Positions 2,203 through 58,175 of a stretch of DNA of 64,000 nt are shown piece after piece. Position 1 is the first letter of the stretch. Each line of letters begins with the position of its first letter. Both the position numbers and the translations under genes were made by a program. The stretch spans positions 56,534 to 120,533 of the forward strand of contig JAZOCB010000015.1 of NCBI GenBank assembly GCA_045596265.1. Reading direction: 5' to 3'. This stretch comes from Christensenellaceae bacterium (GTDB taxonomy: Bacteria > Bacillota > Clostridia > Christensenellales > Borkfalkiaceae). The notes under the pieces were generated by a model, which worked only from the letters and a program-made list of their open reading frames with translations, was not told where the DNA came from and made no database searches.

Positions 2203-2203
2203 T

Positions 2204-3709: not shown

Positions 3710-4514
3710 CTATCTTGTATTTACTGATGAAGCGGGGAATTATACAAGCCATCCAAGCGAAAAGCACATAAGTAGTCATCCATTCTATATTAGGTCTTAC
3801 GTTAAAATGTCGGCGGAAGATTATCGTCAATATCAGATAGATATGCAACGAATAAACGGAATGTATGAAATCCCTTTTGAAGAAGAGATTAAATGGTCGG
3901 ATTTAGGAACAAAGCACAAAAAAGGTGCGCCGAGAACTTCTACGATAGAGCAAATGTCGTTGGACCGTTTGAAAAAATATTTTCGAGCTGTATTAGAAGC
4001 GGCGACGAATAAAGAATCTTTATCCTTTTTATACACCGTAACCGATATCGTTGGGCGCACTTGTTGGATTGGGGAAGATGATATTTATTCTCATCATCTT
4101 CAAGCCGCCTTTCAACGAATACAAATGAGCGCAAAGCCCGATGATTTCGCTATGTTTATTATGGACGAGTTGAATGAAAAGGCTGTAAAACAAATCAAGG
4201 CTGCTTGTCATACTTTCACAGTAAAAGGCGATTTTGTTGAGTACAAAAATTTATACCAAGGTGTATTAACAGAAAACAGTTTGTATAGTCCAGGCATTCA
4301 ACTTGCCGATTATGCGGCGGGAATAATGAATAACTATTTACGTCGAAACATACTATCCCCTAAAAATTATGAGTTCGCGGCTGATTTATACAACGATTTT
4401 ATAATGCCACATTTAAGATGTTCTGCTTATGATACATTCGTTGGATATGGGGTGATTAACATACCAAGAAAAACACCGTTTCTTCCTATATTAGAAAGTA
4501 TTTTTGATAATTAA
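3702..4514 (+). CDS. DUF3800-like protein (uncharacterised), co-oriented with and overlapping the hsdS end
   Basis: N-terminal LVFTDEAGNY and later GIQLADYAAG match the D-E-x-G ... Q-x-A-D signature I associate with DUF3800. The ORF opens at 3693, but the ATG at 3702 sits 10 nt after AAGG. It overlaps the hsdS stop. Confidence 0.6.
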   Translation: MSNYLVFTDEAGNYTSHPSEKHISSHPFYIRSYVKMSAEDYRQYQIDMQRINGMYEIPFEEEIKWSDLGTKHKKGAPRTSTIEQMSLDRLKKYFRAVLEAATNKESLSFLYTVTDIVGRTCWIGEDDIYSHHLQAAFQRIQMSAKPDDFAMFIMDELNEKAVKQIKAACHTFTVKGDFVEYKNLYQGVLTENSLYSPGIQLADYAAGIMNNYLRRNILSPKNYEFAADLYNDFIMPHLRCSAYDTFVGYGVINIPRKTPFLPILESIFDN

Positions 4515-4528
4515 TTAAGGAGCTTGTT

Positions 4529-5323
4529 TTGAAAACTGCGGATAATGAAAATTTTATTCTAGAAAATTTTAGAATGGTTTCCAAAAAAGAAACTTTACTT
4601 TTAGGCAACGTTTTTACTTGTGCAAAAATACGGGACTCTCTAGTCAATTATTTTAAATGTACGCATTGGATTGACTCTTCTGCGAAGAACGCTCCTCCCC
4701 CTGATTTTTACAATGATAAATTAAAAATGATGATGGACGTTATGCGTATAGATGATAACGCCTACGTAGATAAAAACGGCAAAGTTCAAAACCCCATTTA
4801 TAAAAAAGAAAACGAATTATTGAAAAGTTATTTTGGTAAGGATTATAAAAAAGAACGTGATGATATAAGTTGCTTTGTTGTTGCTTCAAGCGGACTCCCT
4901 ACACATCAAGACCATAATTTTACTAGGTATTTTGATAATTTTAAACGCGTATTTGAACATCACAACAAAAAGGTTGCTAACTATAAAAAGAATCATCCAG
5001 GATATAAAACAATATTCTTTGTATTCGATGAATCAACAGCATACATCGAAGCAATAGATAAAGAACATGTAAGAGAAAATCCGCAAAAAGGAGAAATATC
5101 TTGTGGCAAACCTCATCTTGCCTGCTGTGATAAAAGATTTTTAGACGTTATAATAAACTCTGAAATTGACTATGTGATTTGGTATACGCCATACAAGTTA
5201 ATTACAGGTATCAACGGAAAAATGTTTCCCCTTCCTAAAGTTGCCATTATTGAGCGTGCTAAAATACCACAAGAAGCTTTTCAAATTTATAATAGCGATT
5301 TAATGATAAGTTCCGAAGTGTAA
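4529..5323 (+). CDS. Hypothetical protein (264 aa), last gene of the R-M cluster
   Basis: TTG start 6 nt after the AAGGAG RBS (4517-4522). AT-rich like the R-M genes. No motif recognised. A very strong hairpin follows at 5448-5484. Confidence 0.6.
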   Translation: MKTADNENFILENFRMVSKKETLLLGNVFTCAKIRDSLVNYFKCTHWIDSSAKNAPPPDFYNDKLKMMMDVMRIDDNAYVDKNGKVQNPIYKKENELLKSYFGKDYKKERDDISCFVVASSGLPTHQDHNFTRYFDNFKRVFEHHNKKVANYKKNHPGYKTIFFVFDESTAYIEAIDKEHVRENPQKGEISCGKPHLACCDKRFLDVIINSEIDYVIWYTPYKLITGINGKMFPLPKVAIIERAKIPQEAFQIYNSDLMISSEV

Positions 5324-10133: not shown

Positions 10134-12392
10134 ATGAGAAAGATCATAAATATTAATCAGAACTGGTTATTTTACAAAAACACCACGGCAACGGGCAATA
10201 AGGACGGGGCTGAACAGATAAGCCTCCCCCACACCTGGAACGCAATCGACGGCATCGACGGCGGAAACGATTACTTCCGCGGCACCTGCCTGTACGAAAA
10301 GCAGTTTACCCGTGAGGAGCTTACCTTAGGTAAGCTTTGCTACCTGGAGATTCAGGGTGCAAACTCCTCTGCCAGCGTATATCTTAACAGCAAAAAGCTT
10401 GCCACCCACGACGGCGGGTACTCCACCTGGAGGGTCAACCTTACCGACCACGTTGAGGATAATAACCTACTTTCCATCGAGGTTGACAACGCCCCCAACG
10501 ATTACGTTTATCCCCAGATGGCCGACTTTACCTTTTACGGCGGCCTTTACCGCGACGTAAACCTTATCTTCGTCCCCGAAAGCCACTTTGACCTTGACTA
10601 TTACGGCGGCACGGGGCTTATGGTAACCCCAAAGCTTGAGGGTAACGGCGCCCACGTGGTAATAAAAACCTTCGTCACGGGCAAAACCGAGGAAAACACC
10701 GTCCGCTATGAGATTTTGGACGGCGATACGGTCATCGCCGAGGAGGTTTTAAAGGCTGACACCGCCACCCTGTGGATGGAAAATGCAAGGCGCTGGAACG
10801 GCCGCATCGACCCCTACCTTTACACCGCAAGGGTAACCCTTTTAAAGGACGGTGAGGAGGTTGACGCCGTTACCTCAAGATTTGGATGCCGCACCTTTGA
10901 GATCGACCCTAACAGAGGGTTTATCTTAAACGGTGAGGAATACCCCTTAAGGGGTGTTTCCCGCCATCAGGACAGGCTTGGTGTAGGTAACGCCCTCACC
11001 CACGCCCACCACGAGGAGGACATGGATCTTATCTGTGAAGTAGGTGCAACCACCATCCGTCTTGCCCACTATCAGCACGACCAGTATTTTTACGATCTGT
11101 GCGACAGTCGCGGCCTGGTTATCTGGGCGGAGATCCCTTACATCTCACGCCATCTTCCCAAGGGCAGAGAAAACACCCTTTCTCAGATGAAGGAGCTTAT
11201 CACCCAGAACTACAACCACCCGTCCATCGTCGTATGGGGACTTTCCAACGAGATAACCATGGGCGGTGCTGACGATCCCGACCTTTTGGAAAACCACCGC
11301 ATCTTAAACGACCTTGTCCACAGTATGGACGAAACACGCCTTACCACCATGGCCTGCGTATCCATGTGCGGCATTGAGGAGCCTTACGTCCAGATCCCCG
11401 ACGTGGTTTCCTATAACCACTACTTCGGCTGGTACGGCGGCGACACCACCATGAACGGTCCTTGGCTTGATAAATTCCACGAAAGGTTCCCCAATAAGCC
11501 CATCGGCTTAAGCGAGTACGGCTGTGAGGCCCTTAACTGGCACACCTCCACCCCCACCCAGGGCGACTATACGGAGGAATACCAGGCCTTTTACCATGAG
11601 GAGCTTATAAAGCAGCTTTTCACAAGAAAATACGTCTGGGCAACCCACGTGTGGAACATGTTTGACTTTGGTGCGGACGCCCGTGCCGAGGGCGGCGAAA
11701 ACGGTCAGAACCACAAGGGCCTTGTCACCATGGACCGCAAGTACAAAAAGGATTCCTTCTACGCCTACAAGGCGTGGCTTTCAGACGAGCCCTTCGTCCA
11801 CATCTGCGGCAAGCGCTACGTTGACCGCGTTGAGGACGTAACCAAGGTCACGGTGTACTCAAACCTTCCCGAGGTTGAGCTTTTCGTCAACGGCGTAAGC
11901 GTCGGCAAAAAGGAGTGTAAGGAGCATTTCTTCTACTTTGACGTGGAAAATAAAGGCGAAAGCAGCCTCAAGGCCGTCAGCGGTGAGTACAGCGACCAAT
12001 CGGTTATAAGAAAGGTCGATACCCCCAACGAGGATTACATCCTTAAGGAAAAGGGTGCCGTCCTTAACTGGTTTGACGTTGAGACCCGTGAGGGAAGATT
12101 CTGCTTAAACGACAAGATGGGCGATATTTTGCAGACCTTCCGCGGCAAGCTTTGGTTTATGAAGATAGGTCTTAAGATCAAAAAAGCCATGGCAGGGGTA
12201 AAGGGCGACGGCGCCAAAAAGGCCGCCGGCTTTGAGCTTACCCCCGATATGATGCAGATGCTTAACGGCTTTACCGTCCTTCGTCTTACAAGCCTTATCG
12301 GTATGCTTAACGTTACCTTTGATAAGGAAACCTTGCTTAAGATGAACAAGCAGCTTCTCCGTATCAGAAAGCCAAAAAACAAAAAGAAATAA
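10134..12392 (+). CDS. Glycoside hydrolase family 2 (beta-galactosidase/beta-glucuronidase class)
   Basis: GH2 sugar-binding, Ig-like and TIM-barrel pattern (NQNWLF...HTWN, IRLAHYQHDQYFYDLCD, WGLSNE, WNMFDF). ATG 10134 is preceded by GGAGAA. Confidence 0.85.
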   Translation: MRKIININQNWLFYKNTTATGNKDGAEQISLPHTWNAIDGIDGGNDYFRGTCLYEKQFTREELTLGKLCYLEIQGANSSASVYLNSKKLATHDGGYSTWRVNLTDHVEDNNLLSIEVDNAPNDYVYPQMADFTFYGGLYRDVNLIFVPESHFDLDYYGGTGLMVTPKLEGNGAHVVIKTFVTGKTEENTVRYEILDGDTVIAEEVLKADTATLWMENARRWNGRIDPYLYTARVTLLKDGEEVDAVTSRFGCRTFEIDPNRGFILNGEEYPLRGVSRHQDRLGVGNALTHAHHEEDMDLICEVGATTIRLAHYQHDQYFYDLCDSRGLVIWAEIPYISRHLPKGRENTLSQMKELITQNYNHPSIVVWGLSNEITMGGADDPDLLENHRILNDLVHSMDETRLTTMACVSMCGIEEPYVQIPDVVSYNHYFGWYGGDTTMNGPWLDKFHERFPNKPIGLSEYGCEALNWHTSTPTQGDYTEEYQAFYHEELIKQLFTRKYVWATHVWNMFDFGADARAEGGENGQNHKGLVTMDRKYKKDSFYAYKAWLSDEPFVHICGKRYVDRVEDVTKVTVYSNLPEVELFVNGVSVGKKECKEHFFYFDVENKGESSLKAVSGEYSDQSVIRKVDTPNEDYILKEKGAVLNWFDVETREGRFCLNDKMGDILQTFRGKLWFMKIGLKIKKAMAGVKGDGAKKAAGFELTPDMMQMLNGFTVLRLTSLIGMLNVTFDKETLLKMNKQLLRIRKPKNKKK

Positions 12393-15809: not shown

Positions 15810-15824
15810 TTCCGTTTTTTTGAT

Positions 15825-15932
15825 AATTCACACCATAAACCGCAAAAGTCGACCAATAGGGCGATTAATGCGGTTTTTAATTCACACCATAAACCGCAAA
15901 AGTCGACCAATAGGGCGATTAATGCGGTTTTT
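15825..15932 (+). repeat. Perfect 54-bp tandem duplication (2 units), each holding a diverged copy of the dispersed repeat
   Basis: AATTCACACCATAAACCGCAAAAGTCGACCAATAGGGCGATTAATGCGGTTTTT occurs twice (15825-15878 and 15879-15932). Each unit has an AAACCGCA...TGCGGTTT inverted repeat. Confidence 0.95.
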
Positions 15933-17870: not shown

Positions 17871-18153
17871 TTTAAAATGTGTCCGCCATTATATACAAAC
17901 AACCGTTTTTAATCCGTATACTGCAAACAACTAAAAATTTTAGCAAAAATTTACAAAGGTTTTTTTAAAACTGCCGTTAAAATGCTTTACAAAACAAAAA
18001 AATTTGTGTAATATTTACACGTAATCAGCCGCTGGATAACCGCGGCACAGAAAACGGTTCATCATTTTCCCCCTTATCATATATTTTTCAGACAGTTGGC
18101 AGTTTGCGTGTTATGTGAACTGTCAATTGTTTTTTTTATGTCCAAAAAAAGGG

Positions 18154-18224
18154 TTATCCACAAAAAAGCGGCAAAAATAAAGGGTTATCCACAATTTTTT
18201 GGCAAAATAACAAGGTTATCCACA
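18154..18224 (+). promoter_or_regulatory. Cluster of three perfect DnaA boxes (TTATCCACA) in direct orientation, 31-bp phasing
   Basis: GGTTATCCACAA at 18154, 18185 and 18216 (box starts), embedded in a 31-bp repeat unit (GGCAAAA(T)AA..GGTTATCCACA). It lies 40-110 bp upstream of the sdaA promoter. Confidence 0.8.
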
Positions 18225-18262
18225 AAAGGCGGTCAAAATTGCCGCAAAAATTGTCAATTTAG

Positions 18263-19540: not shown

Positions 19541-19545
19541 ATGCA

Positions 19546-19583
19546 AAAAGCGGACCAAATAACAAGGTCCGCTTTTATTTTTT
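19546..19583 (+). terminator. Rho-independent terminator after sdaA
   Basis: AAAAGCGGACC-loop-GGTCCGCTTTT followed by ATTTTTT. Confidence 0.85.
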
Positions 19584-19618
19584 ACCCCGACTTTTCGCCC
19601 CCACCCGCCGTTTTTTAA

Positions 19619-19652
19619 GCAAAAAAGTAGGGCTATAGGTCGGTTTTTGATT
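19619..19652 (+). repeat. 34-bp perfect direct repeat, left copy (member of the dispersed repeat family)
   Basis: GCAAAAAAGTAGGGCTATAGGTCGGTTTTTGATT, identical to 22989-23022. Confidence 0.95.
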
Positions 19653-19656
19653 AATT

Positions 19657-20958
19657 CTAGATCAGCTTTTTTTTGATTCTCCAACCTGATTTACCATTTT
19701 TTCCGATTGGCTCAATTACACCACACTCTTGCAACTTTTCACAAGACTGCCAACATTTTGTATATGTGACACCCTCAGGCAGACTCCCAACATTAATGGT
19801 TCGATTATTCTCTATATACTCATAAACCCTCTTGTCTGTTTCGCTGAAATTTGATACCTTAGCCACGTCGTGCGGTGATTGTGACTGTTGCTCATACGGG
19901 GCTGTTATATAACGTTTGTAGTTTTTCCAATATCCGTATGGATCACTTTTTTCACTACTTTCTATTTTTATGAGCGCCTTTGCGCTTTTATCAACAACTT
20001 TTTTATATTTATGATAATCAAGTAAATATGTGTCAAATTTTACCTGATTCAATATTTCTATAGCCTCATTTAATTCACGTAACTTAACAACCGGTCCTTC
20101 AAACTGAGAAAGATCTTCCTCGCAAATCTGCACGTCACCCCAGTTGCCGGAAAACAATATTTCTGCCTTATTTTCAATGATAAACATTTGCATATGATTT
20201 TCCCACTTTATTCCATGTTTATAGGCAAGAACATCCCATACTGGTTCTTTATATGCCGTGGCTATCGCGTTCTTCATTAGCCGCGGATAAGATGATATTA
20301 TATTGCCTATAATTTCTTTGGTCAATATACGTTTTAATTTATCTAAATTATTAATAATATCATCCCACTTTAGGCTTTTATTGCAAAAATATATTTTTTC
20401 AAGCTCCCAAATATAGGCGTCTTGATCCTCAATATTAACAACATACTTGTTTAATACTTCAGACACGTACTCCTCCCTGCTTCTATCATTACAAAAACAC
20501 GGACAATTTTGATTTTTGCGAAAATACGGACTATATTCCCATTTTACATAGATATATTTCCTAATATAATCAAGCTCAATCCTTTGCTCGTCAGTGATTT
20601 TGTTTGTCATTTCAAAATACAAAAGCTTATATACATTTTTATTGATATTTTTAAGCTTTTGCGAAAAATCAAGCAAAGCGCCCCCGTCTAAAGTATCCAG
20701 AATTTTCTTAAAATCGTAATTCTCAATATCATACAACCTTTGGCACTTTTCCTCAATACTTTCTTCGCCAAAACGCTCACTTAATAAATTATCGATTGAA
20801 ATAGAAAAAAGCTTGGATAGGGTGTAAAGGGTCTTAAGCTTTATGTTTTGCATATTTTCCCACTGACTTACCGCAGCCGGACTAATACCCAGCATTGCCG
20901 CAAGCTCACTCTGTTTTAAATTATTTCTTTTTAAAAGCTCATAAATGTAAGCGTTCAT
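19657..20958 (-). CDS. XRE-family HTH protein with a long uncharacterised C-terminal region (433 aa)
   Basis: N-terminal HTH (LKQSELAAMLGISPAAVSQWENMQ). The C-terminal end looks winged-helix-like (VYEYIENNRTINVGSLPEG...LQECGVIEPIG). It overlaps the upstream gene by 20 nt. Confidence 0.8.
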   Translation of the reverse strand: MNAYIYELLKRNNLKQSELAAMLGISPAAVSQWENMQNIKLKTLYTLSKLFSISIDNLLSERFGEESIEEKCQRLYDIENYDFKKILDTLDGGALLDFSQKLKNINKNVYKLLYFEMTNKITDEQRIELDYIRKYIYVKWEYSPYFRKNQNCPCFCNDRSREEYVSEVLNKYVVNIEDQDAYIWELEKIYFCNKSLKWDDIINNLDKLKRILTKEIIGNIISSYPRLMKNAIATAYKEPVWDVLAYKHGIKWENHMQMFIIENKAEILFSGNWGDVQICEEDLSQFEGPVVKLRELNEAIEILNQVKFDTYLLDYHKYKKVVDKSAKALIKIESSEKSDPYGYWKNYKRYITAPYEQQSQSPHDVAKVSNFSETDKRVYEYIENNRTINVGSLPEGVTYTKCWQSCEKLQECGVIEPIGKNGKSGWRIKKKLI

Positions 20959-22357
20959 CTTCTGCCCTCTCCGTTATTGAAAAATATTTTTCTCTTATTT
21001 TTTCTAAAGATAAATTATCTAAGTCAGCTAATAATTCCATGGTTTTTTCTTTGTTGCGATTTTTATTATATGCACTGTAACTGGTGCTTTTAATAATTTT
21101 AACTTCATAATCCACAGCATCGGATTTAACCGAATCCCTTATAGATTCTTCTTCGCTTTGAATATCATCAATACCCACAAATGAGTCGTATGTTTCAACG
21201 TACTCCCTCTGCCCTTGTGACAACATTTCTTCAAGCGGCTCTAATTCTTCCTCTTTTATGACATATGGCGTTGGGAAGCAACTTATCTCACGATTTTTTT
21301 TCGTGTTTTTTATTAGATAATGCAGTTTTTTTCCGTCTTTATACATATACGCTTTAATCGGCGCCTTAAACTGATTAAAACCTTTTTTCAATGAATCAAG
21401 AATATTTCTTTTTACTTTATCATTCACAATGTAACCCAATAACATATCGTTTAAGCGCGCACCACACTCAATGAGCAGCTTAATGGCTTTTTTTGTCAGG
21501 TCTTCTTTATCGTATATAATGTTAAATTTCTTTAAAAACACATTGCTATCTTCTTCTCCATCTTCATGAACAACATCGTTTTTCTGAACAAAAACCAACA
21601 ATATATCCTTATAAAAATCAGGACATGCCTCAATGCGTTTGATCCATAATCTTCTTTCATCACCACGACTTATAACCGCCTGGCATAAATCATCTATATA
21701 ATCCATCTTAAAATGATAGTCAAAATTTTTATATGCTTCCCATATTTTTTCTTCTTTACTTGCCCTATGCATTAACGCACTTTGCTTTCTTATCTTGAAC
21801 TTTATCTCTGCGATTGACGGTTTTTTCTTTATATGCGCTACACGCTCTTCTGGCAACATTGCGGACATCTCGCTATCTGGCAAAAAATCTTTAACTTCAT
21901 AAAAATATTTACATATAAAGTCAAATTCCCTTTCTTCGTTGACGGAAAGTGAATTATCTACCAGTTTACCTAAAAGTAGATTAAACCTCGCCTCAATCGC
22001 CGTTTCTTGCTCCTTAAGCGCCCAATACGTCTCCCTGTTTTTTACACGCTGAGACCATTCCGTGTCATAAGGAAAATACTCATACTTATACCTGAAATCA
22101 TCTTCACGTTCTCTTTCACCGTTTAAAATTTCATCCATAGTAACGCCATAAAATCTTGACAACGCTTGAAGATTTTCAATTGACGGTAAAGCCTCTCCTC
22201 TCTCCCATTTGCTCACAGTTTCTTTAGAAATAAAGTCATTAACGCTATCCGAAAGGAATTCTGTAAACACTCCCGGCATGCTTTCTTGAGTCAGTCCCTT
22301 CTCTTTTCTCAAGTCGCTTAAAAAATTACCTATTCTCTTCTTATCCATAGTAACCAC
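20939..22357 (-). CDS. XRE-family HTH protein with a long uncharacterised C-terminal region (472 aa)
   Basis: N-terminal HTH (LRKEKGLTQESM...VSKWERGEALPSIENLQALSRFYGVTMDEIL). It shows weak similarity to the downstream 433-aa protein (EREFDFICKYFYEV versus QRIELDYIRKYIYV). It overlaps the upstream gene by 17 nt. Confidence 0.8.
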   Translation of the reverse strand: MVTMDKKRIGNFLSDLRKEKGLTQESMPGVFTEFLSDSVNDFISKETVSKWERGEALPSIENLQALSRFYGVTMDEILNGEREREDDFRYKYEYFPYDTEWSQRVKNRETYWALKEQETAIEARFNLLLGKLVDNSLSVNEEREFDFICKYFYEVKDFLPDSEMSAMLPEERVAHIKKKPSIAEIKFKIRKQSALMHRASKEEKIWEAYKNFDYHFKMDYIDDLCQAVISRGDERRLWIKRIEACPDFYKDILLVFVQKNDVVHEDGEEDSNVFLKKFNIIYDKEDLTKKAIKLLIECGARLNDMLLGYIVNDKVKRNILDSLKKGFNQFKAPIKAYMYKDGKKLHYLIKNTKKNREISCFPTPYVIKEEELEPLEEMLSQGQREYVETYDSFVGIDDIQSEEESIRDSVKSDAVDYEVKIIKSTSYSAYNKNRNKEKTMELLADLDNLSLEKIREKYFSITERAEDERLHL

Positions 22358-22727
22358 CTAATAATATTTTTTTAAATTCAAACTCTAATATTTTCCATTT
22401 TTTATATTGATAATTGCTTCTGCTCTTTTTTTTGATTGCCAACTTTTTTTCTTCGGTAATTCCGTAAAGTAACAATCGTTTTTGCTCTGACGAGTTGTGA
22501 ATATGAAAATACTGATCATTTTTATGTTTGATTTTACCTGCTATGTATTCTTCACGGGTTATTTGTTTAACATAAATAATCGCATCTTTCTGGTGATGCT
22601 TGACCCGTGGAGTATACCTTACAATCAAAGCCGCATCTTTCGCTGATTCCGATTGAACATAAAAATCTTTCAGTAAATATTTATTTCTCCCAACATGCCC
22701 GCATTTTGCTCTAACTTCAAAAAACAT
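22341..22727 (-). CDS. Hypothetical basic protein (128 aa), first gene of the cassette
   Basis: ORF with codon usage like the two HTH genes. GGAGGTG lies upstream of the ATG. No family recognised. Confidence 0.65.
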   Translation of the reverse strand: MFFEVRAKCGHVGRNKYLLKDFYVQSESAKDAALIVRYTPRVKHHQKDAIIYVKQITREEYIAGKIKHKNDQYFHIHNSSEQKRLLLYGITEEKKLAIKKKSRSNYQYKKWKILEFEFKKILLGGYYG

Positions 22728-22923
22728 TTCAGCACCTCCTGCAAAAACATGATAACATTTTGCAAAAAAAAGCGCAATGCAGTGTTTCTTAAATACGTAT
22801 CTTAATTTTTTGAAATAAATTAAGTATCAATACGAGTATAGCATAATTGACGACTTAACACAAAAGTATTTACAAACAATAAAAAAAATATATGCTAACA
22901 ATTTTTAAGAACAATAATAAAAT

Positions 22924-22948
22924 AAAGACGGAAATAAATTCCGTCTTT
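22924..22948 (-). terminator. Stem-loop at the right inner edge of the cassette
   Basis: AAAGACGG-AAATAAATT-CCGTCTTT, T-rich on the minus strand afterwards. It would stop read-through from veg into the cassette. Confidence 0.5.
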
Positions 22949-22988
22949 ATTAATCTAATAAGATTTTTTCACAGCACACAAAAAATTT

Positions 22989-23022
22989 GCAAAAAAGTAG
23001 GGCTATAGGTCGGTTTTTGATT
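22989..23022 (+). repeat. 34-bp perfect direct repeat, right copy
   Basis: Identical to 19619-19652. Confidence 0.95.
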
Positions 23023-23044
23023 GTTTTTTAAAAAAGTCTAAAGC

Positions 23045-24491: not shown

Positions 24492-25223
24492 CTACGCCCG
24501 ATTATTTTCAAGGATCATTTTATCCGCAACGAGGGCAATAAACTCCCCATTGGTAGGCTTTTCGTTGCCCACGTAAGCCCTTACGCCAAAGACGGAATTT
24601 ATTGTATCTGTGCGATTTCTGTTCCAGGCCACCTCAATGGCGTGGCGAATGGCCCTTTCCACCTTGGACGGGGTGGTTTCGTACTTGTCGCCGATCATGG
24701 GATAAAGCTTTTTGGTAATGCTGTTGACCACCATCGGGTCGGCAACCGCAATCTTCACCCCCTCACGCAGGTAAAAATACCCCTTGATGTGGGGCGGTAT
24801 GCCCACCGAAAGGAAAATGCGGCTGATGCGTTCCTCCAAGGACCGCCCTTGCCTGTCAAACCCCTCCGCGCCCGAAAAAATATCGTCGATACGGGATAAA
24901 AGCACATCTTTTTTAAGGGGCTTTGTAAGATAATAGCTCGCCCCCGCACCCATGGCACGACGGACTATCTCCTCGTGGGAGATTGCGCTTAAAACAAGGA
25001 CCTTTCCGCCGGCGCGGGAAATAACCTCCAGCCCGTCCGCACCCGTCAGTACCATACCCGTCACCACAAGGTCGGGTGAAAGCTCCTTTAAAATATCCAA
25101 ACCCCTTTCGCCATCGGTCGTTTCACCGACGATTTCGTACTTATCCGAGGGCAATACACTTTTTATTTCTTCAACGTCGTTTTGATTTTCTCCAATAAGT
25201 AAAACCGTGCGATGTGCCATCAA
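24492..25223 (-). CDS. spo0A: Spo0A-like transcription factor with a degenerate receiver domain
   Basis: The C-terminal domain is nearly diagnostic for Spo0A (GIPPHIKGYFYLREG...SKVERAIRHAIEVAW...KPTNGEFIALVADK). In the receiver, the B. subtilis positions DD(10/11) read GE, and the phospho-acceptor context LVLDIIMP reads VVTGMVLT. Confidence 0.8.
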   Translation of the reverse strand: MMAHRTVLLIGENQNDVEEIKSVLPSDKYEIVGETTDGERGLDILKELSPDLVVTGMVLTGADGLEVISRAGGKVLVLSAISHEEIVRRAMGAGASYYLTKPLKKDVLLSRIDDIFSGAEGFDRQGRSLEERISRIFLSVGIPPHIKGYFYLREGVKIAVADPMVVNSITKKLYPMIGDKYETTPSKVERAIRHAIEVAWNRNRTDTINSVFGVRAYVGNEKPTNGEFIALVADKMILENNRA

Positions 25224-25282
25224 AAAAACTTCCTGAAATTATTTATAGTGAGAGTATATCACATCCCACTTAAAAACACAAT

Positions 25283-25327
25283 AAATTTTGAATTGAATTT
25301 TGAACGAATTTTGAACGAATTTTGAAT
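25283..25327. repeat. Array of four phased 11/12-bp repeats (GAATTTTGAAC), proximal
   Basis: AAATTTTGAAT TGAATTTTGAAC GAATTTTGAAC GAATTTTGAAT, immediately followed by a 0A box. Confidence 0.9.
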
Positions 25328-25332
25328 ATTTT

Positions 25333-25339
25333 TGTCGAA
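25333..25339 (+). promoter_or_regulatory. Spo0A-binding 0A box (TGTCGAA)
   Basis: Exact TGNCGAA match, 110 bp upstream of the spo0A-like start. Confidence 0.55.
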
Positions 25340-25409
25340 ACACATTTCACCCTCTAATAAAATCGACATTTTTCGGCTTTAAACCACATATTTTGCCGCA
25401 CTTAAACTT

Positions 25410-25416
25410 TGTCGAA
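25410..25416 (+). promoter_or_regulatory. Spo0A-binding 0A box (TGTCGAA)
   Basis: Exact match that fuses directly into the second 11-bp repeat array. Confidence 0.55.
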
Positions 25417-25458
25417 TTTTGAACGAATTTTGAATTAAATTTTGAACGAATTTTGAAC
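25414..25458. repeat. Array of four phased 11/12-bp repeats (GAATTTTGAAC), distal
   Basis: GAATTTTGAAC GAATTTTGAAT TAAATTTTGAAC GAATTTTGAAC. Confidence 0.9.
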
Positions 25459-25470
25459 GCTCCCCAAAAA

Positions 25471-26156: not shown

Positions 26157-26198
26157 AAAAAAGTAGGCCTATATGCCCGTTATCGGACATATAGGCCT
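26157..26198 (-). terminator. 11-bp perfect hairpin (bidirectional terminator) built on a dispersed-repeat copy
   Basis: AAAAAAGT-AGGCCTATATG-CCCGTTATCGGA-CATATAGGCCT-TTTGTTTTT. It sits directly downstream of 26206..26670. Confidence 0.75.
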
Positions 26199-26205
26199 TT
26201 TGTTT

Positions 26206-26670
26206 TTAATTTTTAATCATATTGTTTTTTATCTTATTTACCATCTCTGTCGAAAAATCGTTCTTATACACCTTTACACAATAATGCTTATTGTTAAATG
26301 CCGATACATGACCAAATCTATTTGCTTTTGGTCTATCGTCGATAAAAATGTAAAAATCTTGACCGATGATCTGATCATATCTCAGCTTTTTTTCTTCAAT
26401 TGAAACAATATCCTTGATATAAACAATATTTTTTACACATAGGGCACTTCTGACAATAATTACGTTATCGAAGAACTCAACCCATTCGCGATCTATCAGA
26501 TTTTTTAGAGCGCAAACCCTTCTAATCAAAAACACATATACCAACAATACACATATAGTCACAATAATATCGCGCCAACAGATCATCAAAGCCAACGGAA
26601 GTATTAGGGACAAAAAGAATCTAATAACTTTTACCTTAACAAATTTTTTGTCTGGCTCTAAATAAAACAT
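26206..26670 (-). CDS. Putative RHS-toxin immunity protein, second (orphan) paralogue
   Basis: Two N-terminal TM helices plus a soluble domain clearly homologous to 26756..27265 (VKNIVYIKDIV.I.E..L.Y......DFY..ID.RP....F.H.S..NNK.YCV..YK.D.S.EMVNKI). AAGGAGG RBS. Confidence 0.7.
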   Translation of the reverse strand: MFYLEPDKKFVKVKVIRFFLSLILPLALMICWRDIIVTICVLLVYVFLIRRVCALKNLIDREWVEFFDNVIIVRSALCVKNIVYIKDIVSIEEKKLRYDQIIGQDFYIFIDDRPKANRFGHVSAFNNKHYCVKVYKNDFSTEMVNKIKNNMIKN

Positions 26671-26755
26671 ATTTTAGCCTCCTTATTTACAAAAAACAAA
26701 GACATCATCTATCCTGTAACAAAAACACCCGAAATGTTATGTTAGTAAAAAAATA

Positions 26756-27265
26756 TTAAGATTCACCTGCAGATTGTTTTTGATTTATCATATCCATAAT
26801 TTTATTTACCATCTCTATAGATAAATCGCATTTATATATCCGAACGCAATATTTTTTGTTGTTGGTCAGCGATATATGATCAAATTCATTGCCCATAGGC
26901 CGATTATCTATAAGCATATAAAAATCTTGTTCTAAGTCCTTAAAGAGGTAACTTAATCTTTCCTCTTTAATATCAACAATATCTTTTATATACACAATAT
27001 TTTTTACGCCCAAAAAGTTTTTTACAACAATAGACTCTTCATAAAACTCAAACCATTCAATAGTTTTCATTAGTTCATAAACATACCATAAATAAATTAT
27101 GATGATGAAAAATAAGGCCACCGCTATGATCGCGATCCTTTCCTTCCAATCCACGCCATCTATAGTCGCTGCAATAAGCAAAAATCCTATATATGGCAAT
27201 GAAGTCACTATCAATATAAATATCAAACTATGAATGCTTTTTTTATCTGGTTTTAAATAAATCAT
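26756..27265 (-). CDS. Putative cognate immunity protein of the RHS C-terminal toxin
   Basis: It lies immediately downstream of the RHS gene, has two TM helices plus a soluble domain, and is very AT-rich. The start MIYLKPDKK (27265) parallels the paralogue's MFYLEPDKK. The ORF opens at 27343, overlapping the RHS 3' end. Confidence 0.65.
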   Translation of the reverse strand: MIYLKPDKKSIHSLIFILIVTSLPYIGFLLIAATIDGVDWKERIAIIAVALFFIIIIYLWYVYELMKTIEWFEFYEESIVVKNFLGVKNIVYIKDIVDIKEERLSYLFKDLEQDFYMLIDNRPMGNEFDHISLTNNKKYCVRIYKCDLSIEMVNKIMDMINQKQSAGES

Positions 27266-27281
27266 CTTGTTGTTTACTTTT

Positions 27282-30200
27282 TTAATTGCAGAATATATCA
27301 AGAACGGTATTGAATAAATTACCAATAAATTCAAATAAATCATTTATTGTGTACTCATTTGTTCTGGACACATAAACATTAACCGCCATATTAGCAGCAG
27401 TAAGAGGACTGTTCATAATTAAGCCAAATATCACGCTTTCCGTTACCTTTAATTTAGCGTATTTATCTATCAAAAATAAACCTCGTCCGATTAAAGACAA
27501 GAAAGCACTCATAGCGCCCGATACAAAAACGGTTTTAAGGTTTATCTCTTTCCAAGATTTTTCATCCAATATTATTTGTGATGCTATATCCCCAACCGCA
27601 CCTACGCTAAACGTCAGACTCAATAATGCTAATATCGATATATGTTTAACAGATGTAATCACTCCAGAAATACCACCAATCAGCGCACCCAATAATATGC
27701 CACCAAATATATTTTGACCGTTTTGATGCGCTTGGACTGCACCGTATGTTCCGCCTAAAATCGCCCCTATTATCGCAGAAATTATTATGCTAATTGCAAT
27801 CCTGCCACTATGGTCCGAATACATAATTGGGTTGTTTTTGCAGTAGCAGTAAAGATCAATACCGCAAAATGTTTTGGGATCTAAATATGAAAAGGCATCG
27901 GGTGAGATCCAACGGCGAAGCAGAGGACTGTAATACCTTGCATTGCAGTAGTAAAGGCCCGTTTCAACGTCGTAGTAATATCCCCTGTATCTAAACGGGT
28001 TAAGGTTGCCAATAAAGTTGGGATCGGCATTTACCACACCGTTTGCATCAAGCACTTTATGATTACCCCAGGCGTCGTACTCATATCGGGCAACAAGGAT
28101 ACCGACACAGTCGGTAAGGCCAATGACGTTGTTTTGTTCGTCACGGACATATTGGTAGCAGTACCCATCTTCCAGGGTGGCTTTTGGATAAATCAAGTCA
28201 GTCCCGTCGTGAAGCTTAAAGCCAACAAGACTGTCCCCATCGTAAAAATAAACCAGCCTTTGGGTTGTGCCGATATTTTCGGCAATGATCTTTGTTCCGT
28301 CCACGAAATAATTTTTATCCGTGGTGCCGGTTTTGCCGATGCGGATATTTTGGTGATCGTAAGCGTAGCTTGTTGTGACGCCGTTGACGGTCACCCCGGT
28401 CAAAAGACCGCCCTTTGACCAAGCGCAGCTGAAGGGCTTATCTGTATCGCCCGTTGCGGATAAAAGGTTGCCGGCGACGTCGTAGGTATAATTTACCTCC
28501 TGATTGCCTACGGTTGCCTTTACTACCCTGCCGGCGCTGTCGTAGAGATAGCAGGTCATTACGTTACCGTTGCCGTCATTTTCAACAACCGTTGACAATC
28601 TGCCCGACTGGTCGTAGGCGTAGGTTTTTTGCCATAAAGTTACTTCCCCTTCGCTACCGGTAAGCTTTTTCACCTCGCTGACCAAACGGTTATTTTGGTC
28701 ATAGGTATAATACATGCTGTAGTTACCTAACGTAGGATCGTCGTAATATGACGTAGAGGTCACCTTTTGCGTTAAAATATTACCCCTTTCGTCGTAAGTG
28801 TATTCTCTTTCGCTGAAATTATCTGGGTCGAGTGAATACCTTACCTTTTTAAAGCGTAGAAGTGTATTTCCGTTGCCATCGGTATCGTAGGTGTAAACAT
28901 AGGTGCTGCCGCGGCCACAGCATATCCTTTTGGTCGCAAGAAGCCCTAAAGGATTATAAGTATATTCGGTAGACAGACATTCTATCTTGGACAACACCCT
29001 ATCGGGGGCGTTGCCAAAATATTTTTCAACACCGGTTATCCTTGGATTTGATAAAACGTTTTCGTCATAGCAAGTATGTGACTGCGATTTATCAAAGGGG
29101 GACGTTGTATATACGGTACCGCTGTTTTCATTTTTGATAATAAAACCGAACGACGTTGATGAGGTAATATCTTCTCTTACACATTTTTTAACGTTTCCGT
29201 CGTAATCAAATTGGTATATATACTGCTTGTCGTTATGTGTGTCCGTTACGGTTAACAACGGCTGGGCAAGCTGACTTGCTCCGCCAAGATTTGCGTATGT
29301 ATAAGTTACGTCATTCGATCCGCTTAAGCTATTGCCTGCAAGTGAACCGTAATGTAAGCCGTGCATCCTTCCATATAAGTCGTAAACGGCTGAAACCACG
29401 TCTTCCGACATCCCGTCCTTAATATATCTGGTTTCAATTTTAGTCGTAGCGGATTCTTCGTCGAAGACCTCTGTTTGAATCTGAACGGGGACTTCCTCTT
29501 CGCCGTTAAAAACTGTGTACGTGGCCGAGTTGCCTTCATGATCGTGAATAATGCCATATTTGACGTAGCCGTCAGTTACCGTGCGCACAAGGCCCTTGTC
29601 GTAGGTAATTTCGTTACGTGCCTTGACTACACCGTTTACCTTTAAGGTAACGGATAAAAGCCTGCCAACGCGGTTGTATTCGTAAAGCTTTTCATGAACA
29701 ATTCCACCGACAGTTAAGCTTTCTTTGGCGATTACGTTAAAAGGCTTGTTATACTCGTACACTATGGTGTTAATGCCGTCGGATTCGCTTTCAAGATAAC
29801 CGTCTTCATCATAGGTCGATACAGCGCATACCATGCGGCCTTCGCGTTCGCCATATGCGTTGCGTCCCAATAAAACTGATTGTACAAGGTTGCCGCTGCC
29901 GTCGTAGGTATATTCCTTGGTTACGCCGTATTCGTCCGTTTCCGAAAGGGTTTGACCGAAGTAATTGACCCTTGACTGACTTAAACTGGAATGATTATTT
30001 ACTGCTGAAACGGCTTTTTCAAGGATAATACCGTCTGCGCCAAAAATCGTTCTTTGCTCGGTGACGTTATATCCGTTTTGTGAAACAAATTTGTTTGTAA
30101 AGGTTAGTGGCAACGCGTAAGCAAGGTTGTCGGCACCGTTGACGGTGAAGGTTAATTCCTTTACCTTTGAAATGCGCTTTTTACCGTTGTTGCAAATAAC

Positions 30201-32591
30201 GTCAAAGCATTCAACGTCGTTTACAGCATATGAATTACGCATTTTGTTTAATACCGTTCTTAACAAATCTTGCTCGGTAAAATAGTGATAAGTATCTTTG
30301 TTGTTTTCAATTATTATGGTATCACTATTATCGGCCTTTGTCAATGTGATTTTGTTAATTTGTGTAAAATAAATTTGGCCGTCGCCAGCTGAAACCAAAA
30401 GATCACTCTTTGCCGTCGGCGCAAAATTGAGGGGGCTCAATTCAATCTGTTGAACAATAAAGTTGTTTAAATTTACAATATTAATTTTTAATTCCTCAAG
30501 CGTAACGACGTCTTTCTCATCTTCGACTTCAGGTAAAGATAATACGATCCCAACCTTTTGCCATGCGTCGCAGGCGGTACCATCAACAAAAACAGAGGCC
30601 GTTTGTTCCTGACAAGTTTCACCGTTCAGGGCAAACTTATATTTTGCCGTAAGCTTTAACCTTTCGCAAATCTCCTTATGCTTCAAATAAAACGAACAAC
30701 CGTAATATTTATTTGCTTTTTCCGTATCGTCACGCCACAAAATGAATTCATCCGGGACGTCGTATATGTATTGACCGTAAGAACCTAAAGCACAAGGTTC
30801 CTCGTTAAATAAAACGCTTCCGCCGGCACCGGCAAGGGTCTTTGTGGATCCCACAGATAAATCCTTTAGACCAATTATTTGCCCTTCGGCGTTTTTAACA
30901 GCTTCAAAGCTGCTGATAATTTTATTTTTACGGTTTAAATAATATATGATTGAAACGTTGTTTTTATTTGTAACAACCGTGCTTAACACCCACTCTGTTT
31001 CGCCAATCATGTTGTAGTCAAACCTTAAAGTGTCTACAACCTTATAATTAGGCTCGTATGCGCCCGCATAACACTGTTTTGCGTACTGGATTTCTTTTAC
31101 ACGACAATCGTCGTCATAATTAATTAATATAACGTTTATTCCGTTAATTTCGGTGACAGCTTTTAAAAGCTCTTTTTCGTCATATGAAAGGCCGTAACGT
31201 TGAATAACCGACGTACCGACTTTTGTTTCAAGCCTAATTAAAGTATTGCCACTATAAACAAATTTTGTCGTCTTTATACAGGACGAGCCTTTGCAAGCTT
31301 TTACTTCGTCAATATTGCCCTGCTCTGTGTACGTAAAAAGCAAGCTTTCGTTATATCCGTCTTCATTGTTATATTGACTTCTTGCATCAAAAATGCGAAC
31401 AAGCTTGTCGCCGTCATAAGAAAATACCTTATGTACGTCACCGTTGATGCCGGCAACTATATCCGTAATACAGCCGTTACTGTTAAAAGTCAGCTTGTTG
31501 TTGCTTTCATCAATAATTTCTACCCCATTGGATTTTTCCTTTAACACAAGCCCAATGCCGTCGCAATCGTGATAAAGCCCCTCATTGCTATCATAAAGCT
31601 TAAACTGATGTAAGTAACCATTGCCGTCCATGTAAGTGTAAGTTTGACCCTGTTTTTTAACAAACTGCTGTACGTTAAGCTTCCATCCTCTTGGCATTTT
31701 AGACAAGGACTCACAAAAGTCTTCACTAATCGTGCTATAAATGGCTGTTACGTCAATTGCCCTGTCATTTGCCCCTACGCTCATGCAAGGCAAGGTATAC
31801 GTCAATCTTCCTGTAGATAAATTTACTTTTGGATTGTCACCGTATTCCCCCTCACTTTTGCAAGTCATTGCCATAAAGCTATCTTCTAGGACGGTAACCT
31901 CTTGCGTGCAAGTTTTTTCATCGTATGAAATAGTCACTGCTTCGTCGCCATATCTTAAAATTTCGGGCGAGTAAGTAAAACCATCCGCAAACGTTTGGTG
32001 GCCACCGTTAGTGTAATTTACGTTTATCGTCATACCGTGGGGATTAAATCTTTCACCGTCAAGATAATGTCTGTATTTTGGCGGCGTGCAAACCTCAATT
32101 GATTGAGTAATAAGCTCGCCATCTTCGTAATAAATCATTTCAAAAACAGGAGCATTTTCGCCGCTGGCATTTATCAAAAAAAGATTTCCGCCGTTAGCTG
32201 TCAGCTCTATATTTATATTTTGCGCTGTCGTTGACGTGGGTAGCATGGCTGACAAGTCAATATCTGCGTTAGTATATGCCCCATAATAGCACGTCTCACC
32301 GTTTGCGAAAAAAGATCCTCCTTCTTTAGGAAAAACCCTTAAATAGATAGAGATTATCTTTTCGAGGGGTACGCTGAAAATGCTTTTATTAATAGTGATA
32401 ACTGACTTGATCTCAAAACGGTCTTCGCTGTCAGAGTTTTTCACGGCAATATCGTCATACTCGTCGGTTTCTAACCAATAAGTTTTTAACGTGCCGTCCT
32501 CGTTCGACTCTTGCTTATAGTTCTTAAATGAGAACCACGTGCTGTCTGCAATTTTTGTTTTTGTTAATACCTGTGTGTTTTCTGTACTCAT
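27282..32591 (-). CDS. RHS/YD-repeat polymorphic toxin (1769 aa) with a glycine-zipper membrane-type C-terminal domain
   Basis: Many YD repeats (YTYDxxGN..., YxYDxxGR...). The RHS core end reads RYYSPLLRRWISPDAFSYLDP...LYCYCKNNPIMYSDHSG. The roughly 172-aa CT (about 27285-27800) is hydrophobic and Gly-rich (GAILGGTYGA, GGILLGALIGGISG). The N-terminal region has an Ig-like KYRHYLDGERF...VTISY module. No signal peptide or LXG/WXG motif was seen. Confidence 0.9.
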   Translation of the reverse strand: MSTENTQVLTKTKIADSTWFSFKNYKQESNEDGTLKTYWLETDEYDDIAVKNSDSEDRFEIKSVITINKSIFSVPLEKIISIYLRVFPKEGGSFFANGETCYYGAYTNADIDLSAMLPTSTTAQNINIELTANGGNLFLINASGENAPVFEMIYYEDGELITQSIEVCTPPKYRHYLDGERFNPHGMTINVNYTNGGHQTFADGFTYSPEILRYGDEAVTISYDEKTCTQEVTVLEDSFMAMTCKSEGEYGDNPKVNLSTGRLTYTLPCMSVGANDRAIDVTAIYSTISEDFCESLSKMPRGWKLNVQQFVKKQGQTYTYMDGNGYLHQFKLYDSNEGLYHDCDGIGLVLKEKSNGVEIIDESNNKLTFNSNGCITDIVAGINGDVHKVFSYDGDKLVRIFDARSQYNNEDGYNESLLFTYTEQGNIDEVKACKGSSCIKTTKFVYSGNTLIRLETKVGTSVIQRYGLSYDEKELLKAVTEINGINVILINYDDDCRVKEIQYAKQCYAGAYEPNYKVVDTLRFDYNMIGETEWVLSTVVTNKNNVSIIYYLNRKNKIISSFEAVKNAEGQIIGLKDLSVGSTKTLAGAGGSVLFNEEPCALGSYGQYIYDVPDEFILWRDDTEKANKYYGCSFYLKHKEICERLKLTAKYKFALNGETCQEQTASVFVDGTACDAWQKVGIVLSLPEVEDEKDVVTLEELKINIVNLNNFIVQQIELSPLNFAPTAKSDLLVSAGDGQIYFTQINKITLTKADNSDTIIIENNKDTYHYFTEQDLLRTVLNKMRNSYAVNDVECFDVICNNGKKRISKVKELTFTVNGADNLAYALPLTFTNKFVSQNGYNVTEQRTIFGADGIILEKAVSAVNNHSSLSQSRVNYFGQTLSETDEYGVTKEYTYDGSGNLVQSVLLGRNAYGEREGRMVCAVSTYDEDGYLESESDGINTIVYEYNKPFNVIAKESLTVGGIVHEKLYEYNRVGRLLSVTLKVNGVVKARNEITYDKGLVRTVTDGYVKYGIIHDHEGNSATYTVFNGEEEVPVQIQTEVFDEESATTKIETRYIKDGMSEDVVSAVYDLYGRMHGLHYGSLAGNSLSGSNDVTYTYANLGGASQLAQPLLTVTDTHNDKQYIYQFDYDGNVKKCVREDITSSTSFGFIIKNENSGTVYTTSPFDKSQSHTCYDENVLSNPRITGVEKYFGNAPDRVLSKIECLSTEYTYNPLGLLATKRICCGRGSTYVYTYDTDGNGNTLLRFKKVRYSLDPDNFSEREYTYDERGNILTQKVTSTSYYDDPTLGNYSMYYTYDQNNRLVSEVKKLTGSEGEVTLWQKTYAYDQSGRLSTVVENDGNGNVMTCYLYDSAGRVVKATVGNQEVNYTYDVAGNLLSATGDTDKPFSCAWSKGGLLTGVTVNGVTTSYAYDHQNIRIGKTGTTDKNYFVDGTKIIAENIGTTQRLVYFYDGDSLVGFKLHDGTDLIYPKATLEDGYCYQYVRDEQNNVIGLTDCVGILVARYEYDAWGNHKVLDANGVVNADPNFIGNLNPFRYRGYYYDVETGLYYCNARYYSPLLRRWISPDAFSYLDPKTFCGIDLYCYCKNNPIMYSDHSGRIAISIIISAIIGAILGGTYGAVQAHQNGQNIFGGILLGALIGGISGVITSVKHISILALLSLTFSVGAVGDIASQIILDEKSWKEINLKTVFVSGAMSAFLSLIGRGLFLIDKYAKLKVTESVIFGLIMNSPLTAANMAVNVYVSRTNEYTINDLFEFIGNLFNTVLDIFCN

Positions 32592-58018: not shown

Positions 58019-58041
58019 GGGCAACCTAAGCAAAATATTTT

Positions 58042-58080
58042 AAAGTCGGGCTTTTTGCGTCCGACTTTATTATTTTTATT
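58042..58080 (+). terminator. Terminator after cvpA
   Basis: AAAGTCGG-loop-CCGACTTT followed by ATTATTTTTATTT. Confidence 0.6.
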
Positions 58081-58175
58081 TAATAGTTCGCAAAATACCA
58101 AATTGGCGCAAGAAAATATTTATGCGCCAATTTGACTTTTTTAATCAAAAATCGGGCAAAAAAGAGCCTTCCGCT

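Follow-up and report, generated by a model that had tools for sequence, protein, structure and literature searches.

The stretch of DNA analysed here, 64,000 nt from the genome of a Christensenellaceae bacterium (contig JAZOCB010000015.1, positions 56,534 to 120,533; hereafter the window), is shown to carry a recent insertion of 3,370 bp between the genes sdaA and veg, which is confined to one strain among this species' contigs on record. The inserted DNA holds three genes, called here A, B and C, of which B and C encode proteins with a helix-turn-helix domain of the XRE type (XRE-HTH), and it is bracketed by perfect 34-bp direct repeats. By comparison with homologous loci, the cassette is also shown to behave as a discrete, self-contained unit of a conserved, undescribed family. 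We hold the insertion event itself with high confidence. Our favoured reading, to which we give a probability of roughly 45%, is that the cassette may be an autoregulated accessory module of the defence or exclusion type that reached a copy of a dispersed 25-nt motif by insertion in trans; our confidence in the functional part of this reading is modest. The kind of element is familiar, a small accessory cassette of the defence-island type that is integrated without an integrase of its own. The cassette family, its promoter and operator, and the pattern of A as a "head gene" are new. The features of the locus are as follows.

19619 to 19652, plus strand: left 34-bp direct repeat, attL-like, the duplicated target (exact match, 0 expected by chance)
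19653 to 22988, minus strand: unique inserted DNA of 3,336 bp (missing from the 9 conspecific contigs spanning veg to sdaA; composition)
19657 to 20958, minus strand: gene C, 433 residues, XRE-HTH at the N-terminus (HTH_3, E=3.9e-12)
20939 to 22348, minus strand: gene B, 469 residues from the ATG at 22348 (the listed open reading frame (ORF), with a GTG start, extends to 22357, 472 residues)
22341 to 22727, minus strand: gene A, 128 residues, pI 9.8, first in the operon (ORF; alignment A1)
22801 to 22824, minus strand: operator-like inverted repeat CTTAATTTATTTCAAAAAATTAAG, just downstream of the -10 element
22835 to 22843, minus strand: predicted extended -10 element TGCTATACT (consensus match)
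22921 to 22951, minus strand: terminator hairpin within the inserted DNA, on the veg side of the cassette promoter (13-pair stem and T-run)
22989 to 23022, plus strand: right 34-bp direct repeat, attR-like (exact match; veg stop codon 22 nt away)

The 34-mer GCAAAAAAGTAGGGCTATAGGTCGGTTTTTGATT has two exact matches in the window, at 19619-19652 and 22989-23022. A search that allowed up to three mismatches found no third site in the window, and 100 shuffles gave none. Identity breaks off sharply at either end of both copies, and the left repeat encloses one copy of the 25-nt motif at 19623-19647, as matched with a position weight matrix. The insertion length of 3,370 bp is the sum of 3,336 bp of unique DNA, in which three minus-strand ORFs occupy the interval between the repeats, and one copy of the 34-mer. 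The GC content of the insert is 33.3% compared to 43.5% in the whole window and 48% in the 5 kb to the left, and the cassette lies 10-15 points under its flanks. The first-pass annotation, which was made from the letters alone, had described a markedly AT-rich, foreign three-gene cassette between perfect 34-bp repeats with no integrase or transposase, and each of these points was borne out. In Pfam, PHROGs, NCBIfam and PADLOC, the three cassette proteins matched no transposase, integrase or recombinase, and only HTH domains were found. At its ends (AATTCTAGATCAGC... and ...CACACAAAAAATTT) the insert has no inverted repeats, and none of its sequence matches an Rfam RNA. If the cassette excises, the junction of the excised circle would read ...CACACAAAAAATTT-34mer-AATTCTAGATC....

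Contigs of the same species (L100-L109, n=10) were retrieved by exact look-up of the 78-residue Veg protein; exact look-ups of sdaA and of B found nothing on record. The flanks of these contigs are 98-98.7% identical to the window on both sides, and the alignments end exactly at 19652 and 22989, with a single 34-mer common to both. Every one of the ten contigs has one 34-mer (seven exact, three with one mismatch), and the cassette genes are absent from all nine contigs that reach from veg to sdaA. One of them, L107, is an exact empty site in which the sdaA stop codon is followed by the terminator, one 34-mer and veg, and its spacer of 134 nt equals window positions 19541-19652 and 23023-23044 exactly. 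The single 34-mer and the exact empty site in conspecifics show that the insertion duplicated 34 bp of its target. Such a site had been predicted for relatives of this strain, and its presence in the conspecific contigs means that the repeat marks insertion or recombination at this site.

In the protein collection, A and B of the window each stand as singletons, whereas the identical Veg is listed in 56 blocks; the insertion is therefore rare and recent. When species-representative genomes were scanned with sdaA, only relatives at 56-65% identity were among the matches listed, and among these L094 alone keeps sdaA and veg together, with an aldo-keto reductase, an EamA-type transporter and a small HTH gene between them. 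Homologous cassettes were found in other taxa without flanking repeats, but in non-syntenic contexts; the same cassette without repeats in conserved synteny was what the earlier reading had named as evidence against itself. The strains, which are ~98% identical in the flanks and differ here by a precisely bounded 3.4-kb cassette, form a natural before-and-after pair, and the precise boundaries make cloning, deletion, transfer and then testing of the cassette easy.

The conspecific contigs also differ from the window at the sdaA terminator. In eight of the nine (including L100:5408-5795 and L105:2246-2586), a hairpin-rich insertion of ~340-390 bp lies in the terminator loop, at the site corresponding to window 19561/19562 (GCGGACCAAATA^ACAAGGTCCGC) with TA on either side, while the window and L107 are without it. 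Its sole similarity in Rfam is to Gut-1 RNA and is sub-threshold (32 bits compared to a gathering score of 50), and it looks like a miniature inverted-repeat transposable element or a small non-coding mobile element.

The three genes recur together. The order A-B-C, with the genes overlapping or abutting, was found in every context fetched via B (L001-L018) and in ~36 of ~46 metagenome loci with enough sequence downstream of A; the family occurs in Clostridia, and the order is constant. The proposal that the three genes form one operon was thus upheld by their overlaps and by the same order in dozens of other genomes. As for the overlaps of 17 and 20 nt given before, the 20 nt between B and C stand, while A and B probably overlap by 8 nt, since the start of B is most likely the ATG at 22348, as suggested by an identical database protein of 469 residues (P0001) and by the same 8-nt A/B overlap in homologous loci. 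The stop codon of C lies 4 nt from the left repeat. L121 and L127 are 93.9% identical only across the trio and a margin of 117 bp on its upstream side and 102 bp on its downstream side, and this common segment runs from the terminator of the upstream gene to just past the cassette's own terminator. Between L146 and L172, which belong to the class of cassettes that are 90-94% identical, the common segment extends past the trio by 191 bp and 100 bp. A free circle of 3-4 kb had been considered, since many homologue contigs have this length; it was rejected, as L110 and L111 proved to be ordinary fragments that run into neighbouring genes. In the literature, nothing relevant was found for DUF7354 or similar HTH-based defence modules, and no description of the family was found.

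A search for co-occurrence had been proposed with the first annotation, and in it defence genes adjoined the trio in four of the six independent long contexts reached via B. The neighbours are listed by locus.

L003-L010: DrmB and a DrmMII-like methylase (DISARM), with HipBA
L011-L014: Vsr/Dcm and PDC-M33ABC
L015-L018: PDC-S01 paralogues and a SMEK/Aga-like protein
L001: HKD-Snf2 and a methylase

After C, two of these loci (L011:10326-10514 and L015:10300-10482) have an ORF of 60-62 residues with repeated NPNN...YW motifs and an acidic tail; it has no counterpart in the window, and by eye the two copies have no obvious signal peptide.

Proteins of the A family are basic and ~130 residues long across the Clostridia cassettes. 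A word-indexed search returned 74 homologues, and an exhaustive profile search returned 904 clusters at 50% identity. In an alignment of 43 sequences (A1), the residues K8, G10, H11, V12, A32, R41, V42, K43, H44, H45, K47, D48, A49, I50 and D71 are invariant, and they fall in the motifs AKCGHVGRN and PRVKHHxKDAI. No family was matched by A in Pfam, PADLOC, PHROGs, NCBIfam or the PDB profile search. AlphaFold and Foldseek, which the first-pass annotation had put forward as checks, were run on A and B and gave confident models with only weak fold matches. The AlphaFold2 model of A (predicted local distance difference test (pLDDT) score 85.8) has a beta-beta-alpha-beta-alpha core and a basic C-terminal helix. 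Its Foldseek matches, with E >0.1, are to small proteins that share this topology, namely ribosomal L18Ae/LX and the RNA polymerase epsilon subunit YkzG; for YkzG (4njc_F), the probability was 0.96, the target-normalised template modelling (TM) score 0.69 and the root mean square deviation (rmsd) 2.9 Å over 58 columns at E=0.21, and the PDB profile search gave no sequence match between the two. Against a viral library, uncharacterised phage proteins were returned. Several catalytic motifs were considered for A (HNH, HUH/IS200 TnpA, the PLD "HKD", GIY-YIG and HicA), and all were dropped as unsupported by Pfam, the PDB profiles and Foldseek.

In ~10 metagenome loci and one phage, A occurs without B or C and precedes other genes, as follows.

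L186: A, then VWA, PP2C and a Ser/Thr kinase (TerY-P-like)
L170: A, then type I restriction-modification genes (HsdS/HsdM)
L174 and phage PV036423: A, then NrdG, NrdD and thymidylate kinase
L148: A, then three proteins without known function, then an SF1 helicase
L164: A, then RNase III

The phage copy, in human-gut phage PV036423.1 (L099:7009-7416), lies directly upstream of nrdG-nrdD-thymidylate kinase. In L174 (3316-5846), a phage-like metagenome contig, a degenerate A-like ORF precedes the A homologue that is itself upstream of nrdG-nrdD-thymidylate kinase. Short XRE-HTH genes adjoin A in the non-trio loci L186 and L174, and fusions of A were seen with a C-terminal region that is TatD-like by eye, with LRR-A and as four tandem A-like domains. 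Judging from these gene orders, A is a promiscuous "head" gene that is most commonly partnered by the B/C pair. BrxR/CapW-type proteins and CapH/CapP are regulators found upstream of many different defence systems. A resembles them in heading unrelated defence operons (TerY-P-like, type I restriction-modification and the B/C pair), and CapH-type HTH models match the HTH of B and C weakly. Unlike those regulators, A has no HTH, WYL or peptidase domain and instead a beta-beta-alpha-beta-alpha unit with invariant H, K and D, and DNA binding by A is unsupported. The A family is large, with a strikingly invariant motif and no annotation, and heads several defence and phage nucleotide-metabolism operons; its role, once found, could explain a recurring and unnoticed element of defence-island architecture in gut Clostridia.

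B is 100% identical to P0001 and has ~88 full-length homologues at 26-46% identity. In its AlphaFold2 model (pLDDT 87.9), the XRE-HTH extends to about residue 76 and is followed by an all-alpha region (~105-295), an alpha/beta domain (~306-391) and a helical tail. The all-alpha region holds an ankyrin-like LTKxAIKLLIECGAKLN motif (profile positions 275-301), and in the PDB profile search the HTH and this motif were matched and nothing further. The top whole-chain Foldseek matches of B are the RRNPP regulators ComR, Rgg2, PrgX and PlcR (probability 0.9-0.97, E from 2e-3), but with TM scores of only 0.13-0.24 and an rmsd of 17-20 Å, so that the likeness is a lead and not a classification; no TPR family was detected in B by Pfam. 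A DDE or RNase-H-like fold was considered for the C-terminal domain of B and rejected, as neither the order of secondary structures nor the conserved residues fit.

B and C overlap by 20 nt, and both match HTH_3 in Pfam at E ~4e-12. They are paralogues well past the HTH (hhalign 98.4% over 293 columns), which confirms the earlier impression that the two HTH proteins are related. C of the window has an extra C-terminal stretch of ~85 residues; its homologues have 332-356 residues and match only the first 80% of C. The extra stretch gave weak matches only, to AsnC/TrmB-like domains, and may possibly be a winged helix. Outside the HTH, B and C matched nothing in Pfam, PADLOC, PHROGs, NCBIfam or PDB, the ankyrin-like motif of B aside, and in PADLOC-DB v2 only their HTH parts of 60-80 residues match (RmrA, HTH_VI, PDC-M64/M69 and, weakly, capH). 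The large C-terminal regions, described as unrecognised in the first annotation, remained so, and no housekeeping regulator was matched.

A promoter with the same layout was found in front of A across the family. Of the 22 trio loci scanned, 16 have an element TGnTA[TA]A[AC]T at a distance of 100-145 nt upstream of A. The repeat [CG]TTAA-N7-17-TTAA[GCT] lies 10-12 nt downstream of the -10 element in 15 of the 22, compared to 16 of 394 background windows (4%), and would thus stand where the predicted transcript begins. We infer that this CTTAA...TTAAG repeat is a candidate operator for the two HTH proteins. Transcription running on from veg would be stopped by the terminator hairpin within the insert, which would insulate the cassette.

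The motif within the 34-bp duplication belongs to a dispersed 25-nt family, AAAAGTnGGCCTATAAGnCGATTAT, that counts ~24 members in the window, most of them between genes and some in each orientation (for example at 12667, 14251, 23317, 38600, 54263, 60650 and 62973). The motif lies in the middle of the duplication, which extends past it by 4 nt on one side and 5 nt on the other. The hairpin of the 34-mer is unstable (-1.5 kcal/mol, z = -0.5) and several family members fold no better than shuffles, so a hairpin of the repetitive extragenic palindromic (REP) type was rejected and the motif is more likely to be a protein-binding site. A sigma-D-type promoter (AAAGT ... GCCGAT) was also rejected, as about half of the copies point away from the adjacent gene and the spacer of the motif is ~3 nt too short for the sigma-D consensus. 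A 54-bp unit is present at 15824-15931 as two perfect tandem copies, each with one family member, which corrects the statement in the first-pass annotation that all members of the repeat family differ, since these two are identical. The unit is polymorphic in copy number, being single in the conspecifics L101 and L102, and the match between conspecific contigs and the window ends at 26163, in the first nucleotides of the motif at 26159-26183. Taken together, the insertion, the polymorphic duplication and the strain breakpoint suggest that the 25-nt motifs are recombination hot spots. If true, this would offer a lead on the movement of mini-islands without an integrase in bacteria that are little studied and for the most part uncultured.

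REP sequences and bacterial interspersed mosaic elements (BIMEs) are dispersed intergenic repeats of a kind that act as insertion hot spots. The 25-nt family resembles them in being short, mostly intergenic and present in ~24 copies per 64 kb, and in being found at three junctions that vary between strains (the duplications of 34 bp and 54 bp, and the breakpoint at 26163), but it is conserved as a sequence and not as a hairpin. Among the genes annotated around the site, none is RAYT-like.

An element of known kind that the cassette resembles is the cis-mobilizable element (CIME), which keeps attL and attR after the loss of its integration genes (PMC6323972). As in CIMEs and other integrase-less elements flanked by attachment sites, identical direct repeats (34/34) flank the cassette, an exact single-copy empty site exists in conspecific strains, and there are no genes for integration or transfer, which matches the definition in the same source (PMC6323972). 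In the trio locus L002, the cassette stands in an array of repeat-bounded units beside a tRNA-Leu gene. A direct repeat brackets that trio, with 25 bp directly after C and 47 bp (98% identical) further on; downstream (L002:10380-11271) are two tandem 379-bp units, each of which begins with the trio-flanking repeat and holds a terminator and a partial copy of the 3' end of the tRNA-Leu gene, and the real tRNA-Leu(taa) lies at 11185-11271. This layout looks like serial site-specific integration. The cassette differs from a CIME in that it has no known cognate integrative and conjugative element, integrative and mobilizable element or integrase, in that its target is a member of a dispersed 25-nt intergenic family and not a tRNA gene or dif, and in that it is just 3.4 kb long and most family members have no flanking repeats. 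Identity segments of about 34 bp are typical of the att cores of elements moved by tyrosine recombinases.

The target was one copy of the dispersed 25-nt intergenic motif between sdaA and veg, and we propose that the cassette was probably inserted in trans, most likely by a site-specific recombinase acting on the motif in the manner of a CIME; less likely, foreign DNA would have been captured at a staggered break around the motif. Once in place, the operon is probably repressed by B and C, which would bind to the operator as a pair. The large regions of both proteins outside the HTH probably serve to detect a signal, for which an invading phage or other mobile DNA is the most plausible candidate. 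A would be a conserved output or control component that probably acts on nucleic acid or RNA polymerase. That this may be a defence or exclusion module is suggested by the paralogous HTH proteins, the operator, the coupling of the genes, the active-site-like cluster of A and the frequent defence neighbours. The earlier suggestion of a regulatory, exclusion or defence module likewise fits the contexts of the homologues, which often have DISARM, PDC-M33, PDC-S01 and HKD-Snf2 neighbours.

Several results weigh against the proposal. The copy in the window lies amid housekeeping genes and in no defence island, and so does that in L002. No trio was found in IMG/VR or among PLSDB plasmids, hence no vehicle of transfer was identified. 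A phage or plasmid origin had been entertained and was given up for the same reason; the phage PV036423 has one solo A homologue. Beyond the HTH, none of the three proteins is covered by a PADLOC model. The likeness of B to RRNPP regulators is weak (TM 0.13-0.24), as is that of A to YkzG and LX (E ~0.1-0.2). No flanking repeat beyond chance was found in 26 of 28 trio loci (present in 2), which means that repeat-generating insertion is not general to the family. No motif-recognising recombinase was identified, and none is among the genes annotated within ~10 kb in the conspecific L100. The 34-mer also forms no stable hairpin.

The same genes could make up a toxin-antitoxin or addiction module that spreads selfishly, with A as a basic toxin and B and C as autorepressing DNA-binding antitoxins, and we consider this doubtful, though it deserves to be kept in view. 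As in type II toxin-antitoxin and abortive infection systems (HigBA, HipBA/HipBST, MqsRA), a small basic protein is encoded with XRE-HTH proteins in an overlapping, translationally coupled and apparently autoregulated operon with an operator at its promoter. The distribution is cassette-like, the cassette moves as a discrete unit, homologues adjoin other toxin-antitoxin and defence genes such as HipBA, and the short XRE-HTH genes beside A in L186 and L174 would suit an antitoxin. However, A matches no known toxin family or fold and occurs without B or C in the ~10 loci and the phage, and the B of L128 is broken into three ORFs next to an intact A (a sequencing error is possible there). Antitoxins of 330-470 residues with several domains, and as two paralogues, would also be unusual.

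Equally doubtful is a purely regulatory cassette with no role in defence, in which B and C would be RRNPP-like or CI-like and would control other genes or give repressor-type immunity, and A would be a small transcription factor or RNA polymerase binder (like epsilon or T7 Gp2) that sets downstream expression. The best Foldseek matches of B (ComR, Rgg2, PrgX and PlcR), the resemblance of the A core to YkzG (probability 0.96), the many unrelated operons headed by A and the conserved operator would all be in keeping with it, and the epsilon subunit is structurally related to T7 Gp2 (PMC7722741). B does share with ComR, Rgg, PlcR, PrgX and AimR an N-terminal XRE-HTH followed by a large helical domain. 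Unlike them, it has very low TM scores, no detected TPR family and an extra alpha/beta domain, and the cassette has no gene for a pro-peptide or small secreted peptide and carries two paralogues plus A. In the PDB profile search, A showed no likeness to YkzG in sequence, and the cluster of invariant H, K and D residues in A resembles an active site or ligand site more than a surface for docking.

As for how the insertion arose, we rank trans-acting site-specific recombination first, capture at a break or a short-homology crossover second, and self-insertion by A, B and C a distant third. A one-off capture by host repair with no dedicated recombinase is improbable, and could have run by either of two routes: a staggered double-strand break around the protein-bound motif that was filled in and joined to a linear fragment, or a Campbell-type single crossover of a circle through the 34 bp of homology. 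It would agree with the absence of recognisable recombination features at the cassette ends, with the centring of the duplication on the motif, and with the strain differences at other motifs, namely the polymorphic 54-bp tandem duplication and the divergence that begins at 26159-26183. A stagger of 34 nt, however, has no known enzymatic source here, and 34 bp is short for a RecA crossover, for which the donor circle must already hold the exact 34-mer. The repeat array beside the tRNA in L002 is typical of site-specific integration.

An autonomous new mobile element, in which A is catalytic, B and C target the motif and the three proteins insert the cassette with a 34-bp target duplication, is very unlikely. 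The discrete unit in differing contexts, the exact insertion with a long target duplication centred on the motif and the invariant K/H/H/K/D residues of A would fit such an element, as would the varied "cargo" operons with which A travels and its place next to phage nrd genes, where homing genes often sit; the polymorphic 54-bp duplication could be a footprint of the same process. Nevertheless, the proteins have no likeness to a recombinase, transposase or nuclease by sequence or fold, 26 of the 28 trio loci are without flanking repeats, and the conserved operator lies at the promoter, as autoregulation predicts, and not at the element ends. The cassette differs from transposons and insertion sequences in having no transposase family (Pfam, PHROGs, NCBIfam), no terminal repeats, inverted or other, and a duplication of 34 bp that is mostly missing at other loci. 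In a narrower form, to which we give barely any more than an outside chance, A would be the catalytic core of a new kind of minimal self-inserting cassette, here with B and C as its partners for DNA targeting, and would place itself and the operon it heads at the 25-nt motif by a staggered cut duplicating ~34 bp, a spacing closer to the duplication of CRISPR repeats than to that of any transposon; if true, it would explain why unrelated defence operons and phage nrd operons start with A. Least probable of all, and in our view scarcely credible, is that the cassette is ancestral here and was deleted in the other strains between its two repeats: such recombination would leave exactly one copy, as in L107, but none of the nine spanning conspecifics carries the cassette, including lineages that differ by the indel in the sdaA terminator, the composition of the cassette is foreign (10-15 GC points below the flanks), the more distant relative L094, which keeps sdaA and veg among the matches listed, has other genes there, and the origin of the repeat would itself still need an insertion.

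Other features of the window were noted in passing. At its start (754-5323) are ORFs that by eye resemble the type I restriction-modification genes hsdM and hsdS; the second ORF has an internal 65-bp repeat (2279-2343 and 3044-3108, 89% identical), and after them, at 3693-5323, come two AT-rich ORFs without known function (32-36% GC). The spacer upstream of sdaA (18133-18238) contains three perfect DnaA-box sequences, TTATCCACA, spaced by 31 bp. Two clusters of GAATTTTGAAC-like repeats with an 11-bp period, of four units each (25273-25337 and 25392-25468), sit directly upstream of spo0A (24492-25223, minus strand). At 58018-60525 is a 2.5-kb low-GC stretch almost without ORFs (the one ORF that overlaps its edge has 25% GC), with 66-nt inverted repeats 1.2 kb apart (58170-58235 and 59438-59503), for which no Rfam family was matched. 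Past 26163, the window carries two paralogous AT-rich ORFs (26206-26670 and 26756-27343) for small hydrophobic, apparently membrane proteins. They lie downstream of a repetitive protein of 1,769 residues that is RHS/YD-repeat-like by eye (27282-32591), and the region 26206-32591 looks like the tip of a polymorphic toxin with its immunity genes.

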